Below, piece by piece: positions 20,378-26,707 of a stretch of 55,779 bases of DNA. A model generated the notes under the pieces. It was not told the DNA's origin. It searched no databases and saw nothing but the letters and a program-made list of their open reading frames with translations. The translations under genes and the position numbers were made by a program. This stretch comes from Actinomycetota bacterium. GTDB lineage: Bacteria > Actinomycetota > AC-67. Numbering within the stretch: position 1 is the first letter of the stretch; each line of letters opens with the position of its first letter. Where the stretch lies: the NCBI GenBank assembly GCA_005884515.1, contig VAWS01000060.1, positions 1 to 55,779 of the forward strand. Direction: 5' to 3'.

Positions 20378-20497
20378 GTCCCGGCGGCGACCTACTCTCC
20401 CACGCAGTCACCCACGCAGTACCATCGGCGCTGGAGGGCTTAACTTCCGGGTTCGGGATGGGACCGGGTGTGACCCCTCCGCTATGGCCACCGAAAC
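20378..20497 (-). rRNA. rrf: 5S ribosomal RNA
   Basis: The minus strand reads GTTTCGGTGGCCATAGCGGAGGGGTCACACCCGGTCCCATCCCGAACCCGGAAGTTAAGCCCTCCAGCGCCGATGGTACTG...GGGAGAGTAGGTCGCCGCCGGGAC, the canonical bacterial 5S sequence. Confidence 0.92.
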
Positions 20498-20543
20498 TCT
20501 ATGTCGGGGATCTCTCCCCGAGGCTTTTCAAGCCTTGAGCAAA

Positions 20544-20560
20544 CCATAGCGAGCGTGAGC
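20544..20560. repeat. 3' arm of the 23S processing stem
   Basis: CCATAGCGAGCGTGAGC (plus strand) is the exact reverse complement of 25154-25170. A 17-bp helix brackets the 23S gene, as in RNase III processing stems. Confidence 0.8.
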
Positions 20561-20692
20561 GAACCAAGGCCTCGGCCTATTAGTACCGGTCGGCTCCACG
20601 TGTTGCCACGCTTCCACCTCCGGCCTATCAACCCGCTAGCCTTGCGGGGGCCTTACCGGATTAACTCCGTGGGAGGCCTCATCTTGGAACGA

Positions 20693-20723
<31 letters not shown>

Positions 20724-20866
20724 TCTTCCGCACATCGCCAACCAGCCGTGCTCTTGGCAGAACAACTGGCACACGAGCGGTGCGTCCGTCCCGGTCCTCT
20801 CGTACTAGGGACAGCCTTCCTCAAGCCTCCTGCGCCCACGGTGGATAGGGACCGAACTGTCTCACG

Positions 20867-21587
20867 CATGTTCATCCCGCATCACTGCGGGCACAGACTA
20901 TACCTTCACCCTCTTTCGAGGGGCCGGCGTGTTATGGAGCGCTGATTTGTCGATGATCGACAGTTGCTCCATCTCTTCGGATAAGCGATCCGAAGAAGTC
21001 GTTACGGGGACCGACACACCCTTGCTACGCAGATGCTGCTCGACATCTGCGGCGAAGATCCGCTTCGATTTCGAATAGTTTAGGGTTGCGAAGGCGTCGA
21101 CCTTGCGCGCGATCTCGAGAAACTCATCCTCTTTCATCCGCGGTCTGATCCGTTCGAGCAGCCTTCGTGCACGCCGCACGTGCTCGCGCTTGAAGATGAC
21201 GAACGGTTCGACCTCGGCGAGGATCTGCTGGAGTACCGGGCGGCTGGTGATCACAAGATCACTCATGCCGGTGCCTCTGTCGCGGATGTAACCAGCGCCG
21301 ATCATCTGTCGGATGTTCTCCAACCCTGACCGTGCCGATGTGCTTTGCGACAAAGACATGCTCGCTCGGATGTAGAACCCGAACTTGTACTCCCGCTGCC
21401 TGACGAGTTGGAAGTGAATGCTTCCATCTCCGTCGAGGAATCCTGCGAGATAGCTTGCTTGTTCCGCCTTCAATGTGTCGGCCTTCCCTCGGTATTGCCT
21501 CACCGTAACGTTCGGTTGTGACAGTGAGGTTCCACCGATATGAGCCGATGGGCATCCAAGGATTGCTCCTTGGAGACGCAGTGATCT
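20867..21587 (-). mobile_element. group I intron at 23S position L2593 (E. coli numbering)
   Basis: The exon breaks after ...GGGTTTAGAACGU and resumes at CGTGAGACAG. The insert ends in G. It has an R-like element, a P8 hairpin (CCCCTCGAAAGAGGG) and an S-like element (GAAGGTATAGTCTGTGCC), and contains a homing-endonuclease ORF. Confidence 0.85.
20898..21503 (-). CDS. LAGLIDADG homing endonuclease, single-motif I-CreI family
   Basis: YLAGFLDGDGSIHFQL...YKFGF...GAGYIRDRGTGMSDLVI...VEPFVIFK...EFLEIARKVDAFATLNYSKSKR aligns block by block with I-CreI. No ATG lies inside the intron; GTG at 21503 is the proposed start. The track ORF extends artefactually into the exon. Confidence 0.8.
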   Translation of the reverse strand: MRQYRGKADTLKAEQASYLAGFLDGDGSIHFQLVRQREYKFGFYIRASMSLSQSTSARSGLENIRQMIGAGYIRDRGTGMSDLVITSRPVLQQILAEVEPFVIFKREHVRRARRLLERIRPRMKEDEFLEIARKVDAFATLNYSKSKRIFAADVEQHLRSKGVSVPVTTSSDRLSEEMEQLSIIDKSALHNTPAPRKRVKV

Positions 21588-21654
21588 ACGTTCTAAACCC
21601 AGCTCGCGTACCGCTTTAACCGGCGAACAGCCGGACCCTTGGGAGCTGCTCCAC

Positions 21655-21692
<38 letters not shown>

Positions 21693-22195
21693 AGGCCGTC
21701 GATGTGGACTCTTGGGCCTGATCAGCCTGTTATCCCCGGGGTACCTTTTAGCCGTTGAGCGACGGCGCTTCCACTTGCCACCGCCGGATCACTAGACCCT
21801 GCTTTCGCATCTGCTCGACGTGTCCGTCTCGCAGTGAAGCTCCCTTGTGCTCTTACACTCGACGCACGATTGCCAACCGTGCTGAGGGAACCTTTGGGCA
21901 CCTCCGTTACTCTTTGGGAGGCAACCGCCCCAGTTAAACTGCCTGCCTGGCGCTGTCCAAGATCCGGATAACGGACCCTTGTTAGACGCCCAGCACTAGA
22001 AGGGTGGTATTTCAAGGTTGGCTCCACGAGGGCCGAAACCCCCGCTTCAAAGCCTCCCACCTATCCTACGCAACCAGAACCGAACACCAACGCCAAACTA
22101 CAGTAAAGGTCCCGGGGTCTTTCCGTCCTACCGTGGGTAGGCCGCATCTTCACAGCCAATGCAATTTCGCCGAGTCTCTGGTCGAGACAGCGCCC

Positions 22196-22228
<33 letters not shown>

Positions 22229-23017
22229 CGTGTGATCCCACTGTTACCAGTGGCACAGACTATGCCTTCATCTCATCTCTTGATGAGAGCCCGCGTGTTG
22301 CCTCAGCCGTAGATTTGCCGAGCGGCATGACTGAGGCCTCTCCCTTTCGGGATCAGTCGTTACGGGGCCATGCCTCTTTGAGGCAGAGGGCTTCCCACGG
22401 CATTACCCGGTGCGATGCACGGAAATCTGTTACCCCCACCTCTTACGAGATGGTGATCCGGTCATTTCTGCCGGACTCCCTATGTCGCCACAGGGTTCGG
22501 ACTATATCTTCAGCTCATCAAGCCGAGCTGCTCGGCGTGCAGTCTCTGAGGGTTCCGCACTACTTCTTCGAGTCGATATCTTCGCTGCTTGCCTCGTTGG
22601 TTCATCGCGAACGCTAACTCCACAATCGTCTGGAAGCCTGCGTCTATGCGATGAGCTTTCCGTTGCATCAACGTTACGATCTCGCGGAATTTCAGGAAGT
22701 CATCCTGCTTCTTTGAGATCAGTGGATATCGATCGAAGAACGGGATGATCACTGACTCCAACTCTTCGCGTCGGTACACCGAGTACGTCATCACGCTGCT
22801 GTTCGGTCCTTTGGCACGGATGTGCCCGTGGCCGAAGAAGTCGCGGATGGCCTCGAGTATCCCGACGTTGTCCCGATGCTGATATGCCTGAAAGCTTGGT
22901 GCGATCAGCCATCGGTTTCCGTATCGGACTGTCATCCACATATGACATCTTCGGTACCGCGAGATACACGGGACTTCCCAGCAAATAGCCGAGTTTTGTA
23001 ACGGCCTCTAAAGGTTG
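22229..23017 (-). mobile_element. composite insertion replacing 23S nt 1924-1951: an L1923-type group I intron (with ORF) plus an L1951-type ORF-less group I intron core
   Basis: The 5' exon ends ...GTAACTATAACGGU, and the IGS GCCGUU 12 nt into the insert can pair with AACGGU. The 3' exon resumes AAGTTCCGACCTGCACGAATGG after a G. Two R-P8-S sets are present: TCAGAGACTGCACG / GCCGAGCAGCTCGGC / AAGATATAGTCC, and CTGAGGCAACACGCGGG / CTCATCAAGAGATGAG / GAAGGCATAGTCTGTGCC. Confidence 0.78.
22510..22941 (-). pseudogene. LAGLIDADG-type (I-CeuI-like) homing endonuclease remnant lacking the LAGLIDADG motif region
   Basis: FQAYQHRDNVGILEAIRDFFGHGHIRAKGPNSS...LESVIIPFFDRYPLISKKQDDFLKFREIVTLMQRKAH...AFAMNQRG matches the post-motif part of LAGLIDADG_1-type enzymes. 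Upstream in-frame sequence back to the TAG at ~23009 has no LAGLIDADG helix. Confidence 0.6.
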
Positions 23018-23962
23018 ACCGTTATAGTTACGGCCGCCGTTTACTGGCGCTTCAGTTCAAAGCTTCGCCCTTGCGGGCTAACCTCTCCCCTTAACGTTCC
23101 AGCACCGGGCAGGTGTCAGTGGGTATACAGCGCCTTACGGCTTCGCACCCACCTGTGTTTTTAGTAAACAGTCGCTTGGGCCTGGTCACTGCGACCGCGG
23201 CCGGCTCGGGGCGAGAAGCCCTTCACCAACCTCGGCACCCCTTCTTCCGAAGTTACGGGGTTAGATTGCCGAGTTCCTTGACCAGAGTTCTCTCGATCGC
23301 CTTAGTATTCTCTACTTGCCCACCTGAGTTGGTTTGGGGTACGGGCACCTTTTCCACTCCCTAGAGGATTTTCTCGGCAGCATAGGATCAGTGGCTTCCA
23401 TCCATTGATGTCGGCGTCACGCCTCAGGATGATGCCGCCGCGGATTTTCCTACGGCGACTCCCTACGCGCTTACCCCGGGACGACCATCGCCCGGGCCCA
23501 CTTACCTTCCTGCGTCTCCCCATCGGTGGCCTAATACTGCGTGGTTCGGTAGTCCCCGAAGGGATTTCCTTAGCAACGCAGGTTCGGCTTTGGCGCGGAA
23601 ACGGTGGTACAGGAATATCAACCTGTTGTCCATCGACTACGTCTTTCGACCTCGCCTTAGGTCCCGACTAACCCTGGGCGGATGAACCTTCCCCAGGAAC
23701 CCTTGGGCATTCGGCGGAGGGGTTCCTCCCCCCTCTTTCGCTACTCATGCCGGCATTCGCTCTTGTCACGCATCCACGGCTGGATTACTCCGCCGCTTCA
23801 CCCGCGTGACGATGCTCCCCTACCGATCCCTTCGCTTGGACCTGTGTTGCACCCAACACAGGCCGGCTTGTGAAGAGATCCCGCAGCTTCGGTGACGTGC
23901 TTGAGCCCCGTTACATTTTCCGCGCCCAACTATTCGACCAGTGAGCTGTTACGCACTCTTTC

Positions 23963-23999
<37 letters not shown>

Positions 24000-25153
24000 A
24001 CACGGTTGGACATCGTTTCCCACTTAGCACGTTCTTAGGGACCTTAGCTGGCGATCTGGGCTGTTTCCCTTTCGACTACGGACCTTATCGCTCGCAGTCT
24101 CACTGCCGTGCTTAGCGTGTCGGTATTCGGAGTTTGCCTGAGTTCAGTAAGCTTGTAGGCCCCCTAGCCCAAACAGTGCTCTACCCCCGACACGGAACAC
24201 ACGACGCTGCACCTAAATGCATTTCGGGGAGAACCAGCTATCACTGAGTTTGATTGGCCTTTCACCCCTATCCACAGCTCATCCGCCCATTTTTCAACAT
24301 GAGTCGGTTCGGTCCTCCACGCGGTCTTACCCGCGCTTCAACCTGGCCATGGATAGATCACTCAGCTTCGGGTCTGCACCACGCGACTAGACGCCCTATT
24401 CAGACTCGGTTTCCCTACGGCTCCGGGACAACCCCTTAACCTCGCCACGTAGCGCAACTCGCCGGCTCATTCTTCAAAAGGCACGCCGTCACTTACCGCA
24501 CTGGTTGCCCAGCACGGTTTGCTCCGACGGTTTGTAGGCACACGGTTTCAGGTGCTATTTCACTCCCCTCCCGGGGTGCTTTTCACCTTTCCCTCACGGT
24601 ACTGGTTCACTATCGGTCGCCAGGTAGTTTTTAGCCTTAGGGGGTGGTCCCCCCAGATTCACGCCGAATTCCACGTGCTCGGCGCTACTTGGGATCCCAC
24701 TCGGGAGGTCAGTTACCTTTCGCCTACGGGGCTGTTACCTCCTATGGCCGGCCTTTCCATGCCGTTCGGCTAGGCGCTGACTTTGTGACTCCCTGGGAGC
24801 ACCAGCGCGCTCCCTGAATGGTCCCACAACACCCACGTGACAACGCCGCTGGGCTATCACGTCACGCAGGTTTGGGCTGTTCCCGTTTCGCTCACCGCTA
24901 CTAAGGGAATCGCGGTTGCTTTCTCTTCCTCGGGGTACTGAGATGTTTCACTTCCCCCGGTTCCCTCAACCTCGCCTATGTGTTCAGCGAGGAGTGACTG
25001 GCCATTACGCCAGCCGGGTTTCCCCATTCGGACACCCCCGGATCAAAGCCTGCTTGGCGGCTCCCCGAGGCTTATCGCAGCCTGCAACGTCCTTCATCGG
25101 CTCCTGGCGCCAAGGCATCCACCGTATGCCCTTCGTACCTTGGCTCTTAAGAT

Positions 25154-25170
25154 GCTCACGCTCGCTATGG
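25154..25170. repeat. 5' arm of the 23S processing stem
   Basis: GCTCACGCTCGCTATGG is the reverse complement of 20544-20560. On the minus strand it is preceded by CACCTTGAGAATTCC, which resembles the TTTGAGAAC leader box seen upstream of actinobacterial 23S genes. Confidence 0.8.
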
Positions 25171-25219
25171 AATTCTCAAGGTGCTGGAGCCTTGCGTGAT
25201 GCGACTCGGTTCTCGGCCC

Positions 25220-25249
25220 AAAAAAATGCCGGTGACCTCCCGGTCACCG
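25220..25249 (-). terminator. strong intrinsic terminator between tyrS and 23S
   Basis: Minus-strand RNA is CGGUGACC-GGGA-GGUCACCG (8 GC-rich bp), then GCA and U7. Confidence 0.75.
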
Positions 25250-25361
25250 ACAGCCTCCCGCGGCGCGCGCGGTCCTAGCGGCTGTCCTTTCGTGGGCTTC
25301 GAACTGAGATTCGCACCAAGTGGTGACTCCTCGCGCCGTGGACGAACGCCACGGACACGGT
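25222..25361 (-). ncRNA. putative ~140-nt structured RNA (independent sRNA or attenuator-type leader of the 23S-5S operon)
   Basis: Bounded by a consensus promoter and an intrinsic terminator. Contains hairpins CCGUGG-N7-CCACGG and ACAGCC...GGCUGU. An upstream GUCACC copy could compete with the terminator 3' arm. No ORF. Confidence 0.35.
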
Positions 25362-25366
25362 TGCGT

Positions 25367-25395
25367 ATGCTACGACTCGCTCACAGGGGTGTCAA
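25367..25395 (-). promoter_or_regulatory. sigma-70/SigA-type promoter: TTGACA, 17-nt spacer, TAGCAT
   Basis: Read on the minus strand: -35 at 25395-25390, -10 at 25372-25367. It begins 47 nt after the tyrS stop. Confidence 0.6.
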
Positions 25396-25441
25396 CCGAG
25401 ACGGAGCGCCGCACGCTCCCGCTGACCTGCAGAAAGACCCC

Positions 25442-26707
25442 TCAACGGGCGAAGCGTAACAGGGCGAAACGGTTCTTCCCGGCGCGCAGGACGGCCACCG
25501 TTTCCGACGCCAGATCGCCCAGGCCCACCGGCCGCTCGGCATCGTCGATCCGGCGGTTCCCGATGGACGCGCCGCCGCCTTCGATCAGGCGCCTGGCCTC
25601 GCTCTTGCTCTTCGCCAACCCGGCCTCGGTCAACGCCTCTCCCGCGGTGATCGCGCCGAGCCGTGCGCGCGGCAGATCCTTCGAGGGGACGTCGGCGAAG
25701 ATCTCGAGCAGCTCGGTCTCGGTCAGGCCGTCGAGGTCGCCCCCGAACAGCGCCGCGCTCGCCCGTTCGGCCGCGCGCAGGCCGTCTTCCCCGTGGACGA
25801 GCAGCGTGAGCTCGCGGGCGAGCCGCCGCTGCGCCTCCCGTTTCTGGGGCGCGCGCGCAACGTCGGCCTCCAGCGCCTCGATCTCCTCGCGGGGAAGCTC
25901 GGTGAAGAACCGGAGGAACGGACCGGCGTCGGCGTCGGGCACGTTCACGAACCACTGATAGAAGGCGTACGGGCTGGTGCGCGCCGGGTCGAGCCAGACG
26001 GCTCCCTCCGCGGTCTTGCCCATCTTGACCCCGTCGCTTCGGGTCACCAACGGCCAGGTCAGGCCGAAGAGCTGGACGCCGTGCATCCTGCGGCCGAGGT
26101 CCACCCCCACCGAGATGTTGCCGAACTGATCCGAGCCCCCCACCTGGAGCTCGCACCCGGCGGTCTCGTGCAGGTGAACGAAGTCGTACGCCTGCATGAG
26201 CATGTAGCTGAACTCGGTGTAGCTGATCCCGGCCCTGCTCTCGAGGCGCGCGCGCACCGATTCCTTCGCGAGCATGGCATTGACCGAGAAGTGCTTGCCG
26301 ACGTCCCGCAAGAACTCGATATAGCCGAGCGCGCCGAGCCAGTCGGCGTTGTTGACGAGCGACGCGCCGGCGTCGAAGTCGAGGAACCGCGCGATCTGCG
26401 CCCGGATCGACGCTACGTTTTCGGCCAGCTCGCTTTCGGAAAGGAGGTTGCGCTCCTCGCTCTTGCCCGACGGGTCGCCGATCATGCCGGTGCCCCCGCC
26501 GGCGACGGCGATCGGGTGGTGCCCCGCCTTCTGGAACCGCCGCAACGTCGTCAGCCCGACGAGATTTCCGATGTGCAGGGACGGGGCGCTCGGATCGAAG
26601 CCGCAGTAGAGCGTGATCGGGCCGTCCCGCAGCCGGGCCGGCAGCGCGTCCTCCCCGGTCCATTGGTAGGCAAGGCCGCGCCAGAGCAGCTCGTCGAACA
26701 GGTCCAT
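25442..26707 (-). CDS. tyrS: tyrosine--tRNA ligase
   Basis: 421 aa with PSLHIGNLV (HIGH), GVKMGKT (KMSKS) and a C-terminal S4-like domain. Confidence 0.93.
   Translation of the reverse strand: MDLFDELLWRGLAYQWTGEDALPARLRDGPITLYCGFDPSAPSLHIGNLVGLTTLRRFQKAGHHPIAVAGGGTGMIGDPSGKSEERNLLSESELAENVASIRAQIARFLDFDAGASLVNNADWLGALGYIEFLRDVGKHFSVNAMLAKESVRARLESRAGISYTEFSYMLMQAYDFVHLHETAGCELQVGGSDQFGNISVGVDLGRRMHGVQLFGLTWPLVTRSDGVKMGKTAEGAVWLDPARTSPYAFYQWFVNVPDADAGPFLRFFTELPREEIEALEADVARAPQKREAQRRLARELTLLVHGEDGLRAAERASAALFGGDLDGLTETELLEIFADVPSKDLPRARLGAITAGEALTEAGLAKSKSEARRLIEGGGASIGNRRIDDAERPVGLGDLASETVAVLRAGKNRFALLRFAR

Follow-up and report, generated by a model that had tools for sequence, protein, structure and literature searches.

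A conserved leader with a short reading frame and a terminator precedes unlinked 23S-5S rRNA genes in Actinomycetota: a possible leader-peptide attenuator

The 23S-5S locus and its relatives

An Rfam search of the window (the whole 55,779-nt stretch of DNA analyzed here) located, at gathering scores, a 23S rRNA gene (RF02541) at positions 25145–21552 and a 5S rRNA gene (RF00001) at 20495–20379, both on the minus strand. The same search revealed no 16S gene in the window, including the region upstream of 23S. The 23S gene with its insertions and the 5S gene (20379–25145) form the putatively regulated unit, and a tyrS-like frame terminates at 25442.

In the interval 24500–26500 a promoter scan detected a single sigma-70-type promoter-like site on the minus strand (0.2 in shuffled sequences). 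It is composed of the -35 hexamer TTGACA (25395–25390) and the -10 hexamer TAGCAT of the TANNNT type (25372–25367), separated by 17 nt, just as an earlier note on this DNA had proposed, and transcription would start at about 25362–25359. The scan also found one terminator-like site in this interval, a hairpin at 25227–25252 (minus strand) with 11 pairs, seven of them G-C, and the 4-nt loop GGGA, which is abutted by a U7 tract (25220–25226). Taken alone this hairpin folds at -21 kcal/mol (z = -4.5). The earlier note had described an 8-bp GC hairpin with U7 after a leader of ~140 nt; both the hairpin and the U7 are present, but the stem is longer than was stated.

Downstream of the U7 tract lies a non-conserved spacer without a promoter-like site (25181–25219), followed by CUUGAGAAUUCCAUAGCGAGCGUGAGCAUC (25151–25180, minus strand), which combines a boxA/boxC-like motif with the 5' strand of the processing stem of pre-23S; this segment is conserved throughout the phylum, and linked operons have it as well. 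The 23S gene starts 75 nt beyond the U7 tract. The 5' strand of the stem, AUAGCGAGCGYGAGCAUC, is located just before 23S, and in complete contigs its complement occurs 3–4 kb downstream; in the window this complement is found at 20563–20546, just before 5S. It should be mentioned that this partner is located about 1 kb past the Rfam end of 23S (21552), with a 263-codon frame (20898–21689, minus strand) between the two. It is likely that the 23S gene, which exceeds the model by ~670 nt as it is, has another insertion toward its 3' end.

When 40 relatives were searched at the DNA level, the same leader was found to precede 23S in another 11 genomes of the family, designated here as family 1 (f1). 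Searches with a covariance model (R1) detected one leader copy per genome in 12 of 21 species genomes. The family, order and class comprise the same 21 genomes, so that the f1 host group is a class-level, uncultured lineage. A pattern scan of soil metagenome contigs added 33 contigs, which brought the number of distinct leaders to 33 in total; since the leader sequences are related to each other, these counts do not represent independent events. Each of the 33 leaders precedes 23S wherever the contig extends far enough. The gene upstream of the leader varies: it is tyrS in only three cases, while in the others it is a different gene or one on the opposite strand, and thus the leader unit is not the tail of tyrS. 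It belongs to 23S and was never found apart from it.

Alignments of the f1 sequences (A1 and A2) revealed a conserved order of elements: promoter, 5' hairpin, Shine-Dalgarno (SD)-like motif, short reading frame, two nested helices (P1 and P2), terminator with U-tract, a spacer of 31–55 nt, the processing motif and 23S. The -35 hexamer TTGACA and the 17-nt spacer are present in all full-length f1 leaders, while TAGCAT, TAGACT, TAGGAT, TAGCCT, TAACCT and TACATT were found as variants of the -10 hexamer. The terminator stem has 9–11 bp in the relatives and is followed by a U-rich tract in all of them. Comparison with relatives, which the earlier note had suggested as a check, thus revealed that the element is conserved, with covarying pairs in the 5' hairpin, in P1 and in the terminator.

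To extend the comparison, 401 genomes of the phylum were searched with a pattern of the processing-stem motif, and the DNA upstream of it was retrieved. Twelve families contain ordinary linked 16S-ITS-23S operons without a leader unit. One large family (f2) has an unlinked 23S gene in all 17 genomes examined, and each of these is preceded by a promoter of the form TTGAC-17/18-TAGAAT, an SD-like motif (GAAAGG, GAGAGGA or GGAGG, with one of these in 17/17) and a frame of 8–12 codons, mostly MxxT(F/S)PGVxA. Further downstream come a small hairpin that contains the stop codon, the terminator CCGCCGGCC...GGCCGGCGG with U7–8 and a spacer of 36–78 nt that has no promoter-like site; the processing motif, which is that of f1, and 23S follow. 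The f1 and f2 leaders are not detectably homologous, because model R1 scores at most 12.6 bits on f2 sequences and no significant sequence similarity was found between the two families.

In every leader of f1 and f2, the only boxA/boxC-like motif follows the terminator. Between the terminator and 23S, the scan found no pair resembling -35 and -10 hexamers in 31 f1 and 17 f2 sequences (0/48 in all), while with the same scan the upstream promoter was found in every full-length sequence of both families. The previous remark that no convincing second promoter precedes 23S therefore holds both for the window and for 30 relatives. Since this region has no promoter-like site, 23S-5S would be made only by read-through of the terminator, unless a promoter of unknown type hides in the non-conserved spacer. 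The dependence of 23S-5S expression on passing the conserved leader terminator is thus supported in outline by the sequence comparison.

The short reading frame and the helices of the leader

The earlier note had reported no open reading frame between promoter and terminator. This was not borne out: a frame of 13 codons, conserved in position and frame in all relatives, is present at 25275–25316 (minus strand). It consists of GTG, 12 sense codons and the stop codon TAG (25277–25275) and encodes the putative peptide MRISVRSPRKDSR; an in-frame TTG at 25319 could serve as an alternative start, giving 14 codons. The frame is preceded by the SD-like motif GAGGAG (25327–25332). A purine-rich motif of this kind (GGAG, GAGG, AAGG or GGGA) is located 5–11 nt upstream of the start codon in all f1 leaders, and the 3' end of 16S carries CCUCC.

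In all 29 full-length distinct f1 leaders the start codon, the stop codon and the SD-like motif occupy the same alignment columns. The frame varies in length from 12 to 14 codons, the stop column is invariably TAG or TAA, and one clade has ATG as its start codon, the other GTG at a position one codon further downstream. Openness of the frame alone means little, because open frames are common at 65% G+C, and 30–49 codons stay open here. The distribution of stop triplets is as follows: none in frame against eight distinct ones out of frame in the f1 region, and none against nine in the f2 region, i.e., 17 out of frame and none in frame in both families together. Only two indels were found within the f1 frame, each of 3 nt (L169 and L151); the leader on its flanks does have indels of 1–2 nt, as do the loop of P2 and the positions immediately 3' of the stop codon. 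The last f1 codons vary either synonymously or in a way that preserves pairing (CGC/CGU, AGC/AGU with a compensating G>A, GAC/GAU).

The f2 frame also contains two indels of 3 nt (L208 and L217). In a subclade of three f2 sequences (L014, L215 and L216) the conserved block ACUUCCCAGGGGU is read in another frame: it is flanked by a -1 indel on its 5' side and a +1 indel on its 3' side, so that the start and the stop region stay in register. Such compensating indels are the pattern that selection for an open frame would be expected to produce.

An excess of variation at third positions, which would be a coding signal, is absent from the f1 frame alignment, and the peptide sequence is conserved neither within nor between f1 and f2. 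We saw in the frame no enrichment of an amino acid, no regulatory run of codons and no known arrest motif. An unconserved peptide fits a frame whose translation, rather than its product, matters; if the frame is translated, it may be the act of translation that counts. The conserved mini-frame is the new and central feature of the leader.

It should be mentioned that 33% of the third positions of the f1 frame are A, compared with 9% in four long genes of the window, and that the rare A-ending codons CGA, CCA, GCA, GGA and TCA occur in it. The most conserved f1 sense codons outside P1 are CGA, at codon 2 or 3, and CCA, six codons before the stop. No such bias was seen in the f2 frames.

As for secondary structure, the earlier note had described the leader as a structured RNA of ~140 nt. 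The whole leader of 145 nt folds no better than shuffled sequences (z = -0.78), but local helices are conserved, namely the 5' hairpin, P1/P2 and the terminator. The 5' hairpin, CCGUGG-CGUUCGU-CCACGG (25336–25354, minus strand), directly follows the presumed transcription start and folds at -10.1 kcal/mol (z = -2.4). Its helix is 94% paired among the relatives, with five standard pair types at the pair 16–28 of alignment A2, and it may be a pause or stabilizer hairpin.

The 5' strand of P1, GACAGCC (25280–25286), lies within the last codons of the frame (GAC AGC C), and its 3' strand is GGCUGUC (25249–25255). P1 encloses the hairpin P2, CCGCG-CGCGC-CGCGG (25258–25272). The P1 helix is 98.7% paired, with a compensatory change of C-G to U-A at 87–130, and P2 is 98.8% paired, its stem being almost invariant and its loop variable in length. 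The terminator is 99.7% paired, with three covarying pairs in the 33 f1 sequences. The final 3–4 nt of the 3' strand of P1 (UGUC) double as the base of the terminator stem, and each of the two competing pairings is conserved in about 30 of 32 sequences. We also considered an extension of P1 into the frame (P0, CCAGC:GCUGG) and rejected it: it is 72% paired, has one 'compensatory' column, and its pairing (2.84) is close to that of a shuffled frame interior (2.51). Covariation was set aside as evidence for P0 as well, since the signal between alignment columns, compared all against all, mainly reflects the separation of the sequences into two clades. A helix of the 1:2 type was not found in the leader.

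In the window, the minimum-energy fold predicted for the P1-P2-terminator module contains the full P1 and a 7-bp terminator, leaving GGCA unpaired before the U-tract; when the 5' strand of P1 is omitted, the terminator stem is complete (11 pairs, -21 kcal/mol). For the local module across f1, the outer P1 pairs have a probability of 0.70 against 0.29 for the bottom pairs of the terminator, and P1 wins in 27 of 29 sequences. Equilibrium folding of the leader as a whole predicts that the pairs at the terminator base form in either state, with a probability of 0.79 in free RNA versus 0.93 with a ribosome at the stop codon in f1, and 0.65 versus 0.82 in f2. The shift caused by a ribosome footprint is thus modest in these calculations. 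In the predicted f2 folds, an in-frame GGGG pairs with CCCC that abuts or overlaps the 5' arm of the terminator and encloses the stop codon, a modeled topology that is the same as that of P1 in f1.

Candidate mechanisms

On these grounds it can be hypothesized that the leader of the unlinked 23S-5S operon is a transcription attenuator of the leader-peptide (ribosome-mediated) type, in which translation would favor termination; we favor this reading over its rivals and regard it as evenly poised between right and wrong. Transcription of 23S-5S would begin solely at TTGACA/TAGCAT, and about 45 nt into the RNA the SD-like motif and GTG would open the 13-codon frame, with its last three codons and stop codon sitting in P1, around P2. 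As long as no ribosome occupies the mini-gene, P1/P2 would form first and, through the 3–4 nt that its 3' strand has in common with the base of the terminator next to U7, would withhold the bottom pairs of the latter. The remaining 7-bp hairpin, 4 nt away from the U-tract, would be a poor terminator, and polymerase would continue through the boxA-like site into 23S. If a ribosome has reached the stop codon and covers ~12 nt past it, P1/P2 would be melted and the full 11-bp terminator would form, so that transcription would end after ~140 nt. An intrinsic terminator requires a stem reaching the U-tract, and it follows from this rule that a ribosome at the stop codon would turn a poor terminator into a good one. 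The sensed signal would be the general capacity for translation and not a single amino acid, and the result would be feedback on the synthesis of large-subunit rRNA. Translation of the frame, termination at the hairpin in vivo and this direction of the switch are inferences from the arrangement of the sequence elements.

The antiterminator is the part of this scheme for which the models argue weakly. P1 shares only 2–4 nt with the base of the terminator, and its 27 wins in 29 local comparisons are accompanied by the small shift in the whole leader noted above. Unaided, P1 may shield the base of the terminator little, because branch migration over 3 bp is fast. In a broader form, we suggest that unlinked 23S-5S operons are gated by a cis-acting sensor of ribosomes in two unrelated leader families of Actinomycetota, where free initiation-competent ribosomes would translate the mini-gene and so complete a terminator located before boxA. 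This generalization is tentative, with the balance of probability somewhat against it.

A serious rival, unlikely in our estimation, is an attenuator that works without translation: P1/P2 with its invariant internal loop would bind a protein or a small ligand that stabilizes P1 against the terminator base, or the terminator would simply act as a constitutive NTP-sensitive throttle. A RAT-type antiterminator protein, a free ribosomal protein or a nucleotide can be named as candidate binders. The near invariance of P1/P2 and of the internal loop (GCUARNA/GA), the overlap of P1 with the terminator base, which resembles RAT elements, and the lack of conservation of the peptide all speak for such a mechanism, as does the 16S leader of f2, where a conserved terminator precedes the boxA-like motif with no clear reading frame in six sequences. 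However, much of the conservation of the internal loop is accounted for by an Arg codon and the stop codon, and the SD-like motif, the start and stop codons, the frame-preserving indels and the missing in-frame stops, observed in two unrelated families, would be left unexplained. There was also no match to a riboswitch or ribosomal-protein leader in Rfam. Comparison of the leader with the 23S and 5S of the same organism revealed neither similarity nor complementarity above chance, and hence no sign that a binding site of a ribosomal protein is mimicked.

Quite improbable, in our view, is that the unit is an independent small gene next to 23S, either a trans-acting sRNA or an mRNA for a peptide of 13 residues, and that 23S is fed by leaky, non-regulatory read-through. 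Such a gene would have its own promoter and a strong terminator, and its product of ~140 nt, bounded by the 5' hairpin and the 3' terminator hairpin, would be stable. Yet the unit occurs in one copy per genome and never away from 23S, the most highly expressed gene would be left without a promoter of its own, the peptide is conserved neither within nor between the families, and two unrelated leader families share order and spacing before 23S. The earlier note had offered an orphan sRNA or dependence of 23S-5S on read-through as alternatives; the second has been strengthened and the first weakened, the unit being always found with 23S.

E. coli rrn operons contain terminator-like leader structures (tL) with post-transcriptional roles. 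By analogy, the hairpin and U-tract might not terminate in vivo, and the leader, which adjoins the 5' side of the processing stem, might serve in folding or processing of pre-rRNA or in 50S assembly and be removed with the stem. We see only a slim chance of this. In all 33 f1 and 17 f2 leaders the stem abuts the U-tract as in a textbook intrinsic terminator; polymerase meets the terminator before the boxA-like site, so that a Nus-type complex could not be loaded beforehand; the leader has no complementarity to 23S and 5S above chance; and the conserved frame would be left unexplained. The position of the boxA-like motif also implies, more generally, that a Nus complex cannot carry polymerase through this terminator.

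The three-part, riboswitch-like attenuator of the earlier note, in which GUCACC (25327–25322) would pair with GGUGAC of the terminator 5' arm as an antiterminator, is very improbable. This pairing does exist in the window (including the minimum-energy fold of the truncated transcript), and GUCGCC of L152 and L169 could pair likewise. However, among the 33 sequences the helix is 66.9% paired, compared with 64.4% for shuffled sequences; the pairs at its center are lost in 21 of 31 and 15 of 24 sequences; and GUCAGC in the closest relative of the same genus and GUCAAG/GCCAAG in sister clades occur without a compensating change. The Rfam scan (Rfam 15) proposed along with it lent this idea no support, with only 23S and 5S reaching gathering scores; in the region 25100–25500 at E ≤ 10 the best non-rRNA match was asX1 (E = 0.87), through the terminator hairpin only. 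The conserved mini-frame shifts the likely logic from ligand sensing or Nus dependence to a ribosome-mediated one.

Comparison of the proposed ribosome-mediated attenuator with known systems revealed that: (i) like the attenuators of amino-acid operons (trpL, hisL, pheL, ilv, leu), the leader combines a promoter with a short frame led by an SD-like motif and with an intrinsic terminator that precedes the genes, the strand competing with the terminator includes the 3' end of the frame, and termination would be favored once a ribosome is at the stop codon, but here the targets are rRNA genes, there is neither a run of codons for a single amino acid nor a 1:2-type helix, the competing helix overlaps only the lowest 2–4 pairs of the terminator stem and it is the capacity for translation itself that would be sensed; (ii) like the stress-sensing attenuators (ermK, vmlR, msrD, actinobacterial whiB7, topAI), some of which occur in Actinobacteria (whiB7), it has an upstream frame before a terminator, and the behavior of the ribosome would set the read-through, whereas those systems control resistance or stress genes by drug- or context-specific stalling and the leader described here precedes 23S-5S and has a freely variable peptide; (iii) it shares with rRNA antitermination systems (boxB-boxA-boxC, NusA/B/E/G) and with tL of E. 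coli a boxA/boxC-like motif, CUUGAGAAYUCCAUAG, and a terminator-like leader structure, but here the terminator precedes the boxA-like motif and the leader carries a reading frame. We take the motif CUUGAGAAYUCCAUAG to resemble the mycobacterial NusA site GAACUCAAUAG. The topAI frame lies upstream of a Rho site (PMC12121999). Full-text literature searches revealed no rRNA operon with a leader peptide, an upstream frame or an attenuator of such kind.

How rRNA synthesis is matched to the need for translation is an old question, and ribosome feedback, and later ppGpp and NTP sensing at the promoter, have been the answers so far. To our knowledge, all described control of rRNA acts at initiation or through Nus-type antitermination. 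If the proposed leader-peptide attenuator is real, the rRNA transcript itself would physically read the availability of ribosomes, providing direct negative feedback at the transcript level from translation capacity to the synthesis of large-subunit rRNA, and it would reveal how the two units are regulated where the 16S and 23S genes are separated. The idea is testable in a laboratory actinobacterium, because the element is short and modular and the mutational predictions are clear. In annotation, such leaders should be treated neither as 'orphan sRNAs' nor as terminators of the upstream gene.

The separate 16S units

Unlinked rRNA genes are known from many slow-growing lineages with a free-living habit (Brewer et al., bioRxiv 10.1101/705046), and the 16S and 23S-5S genes are separate here too; that work deals with gene arrangement, and its passages on promoters and regulation are worded in general terms and contain no leader element. 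In the genomes studied, 16S and 23S-5S are located on different contigs or about 200 kb apart. The f1 16S genes, found on other contigs, have their own TTGC-N-TATACT promoter and their own downstream terminator, and their leader consists of the promoter, a hairpin and a boxA-like motif. No canonical terminator was found in the f1 16S leader, and weak U-poor look-alikes occur in some genomes. A 16S unit without a leader terminator means that the proposed control would act on one of two rRNAs needed in equal amounts, which counts against the ribosome-mediated attenuator. Leader terminators upstream of boxA recur in the f1 and f2 lineages, while the mini-frame is, as far as seen, specific to the 23S unit.

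Several additional features of the 16S units were observed. The f1 16S leaders (L184–L193) carry GCCUUGAAAACUGCAUAGCGAGGACA, and CCUCGCUAUGC, its complement, follows the 3' end of 16S; because of this complementarity it can be concluded that the processing stems of the 16S and 23S units of f1 share the CAUAGCGAG core. The f1 16S unit ends in the terminator GGCGCC...GGCGCC UUCUUUC. The f2 16S leaders (L236–L241) are conserved as well: a structured block, GGAGUCGCCUAUAAGGCACCUGAGCC...CAGGU, and a canonical terminator, CGCCGGUG...CCGGCG UUUUUGUUUG, are followed by the boxA-like motif GCUCYUUGAGAACUGAAYAGUGUGCC, and a consistent mini-frame was not found among the six sequences.

Finally, the 16S gene of the genome that contains the window (contig C33 of G000, L194) and those of four relatives (G008, G014, G009 and G010; L200–L203) contain an insertion of ~250–300 nt near the 3' end, which is missing from other members of the family. 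The insertions carry motifs typical of group I introns, GGGAAGUCG, CAGAGACUACACG and AAGAUAUAGUCC.
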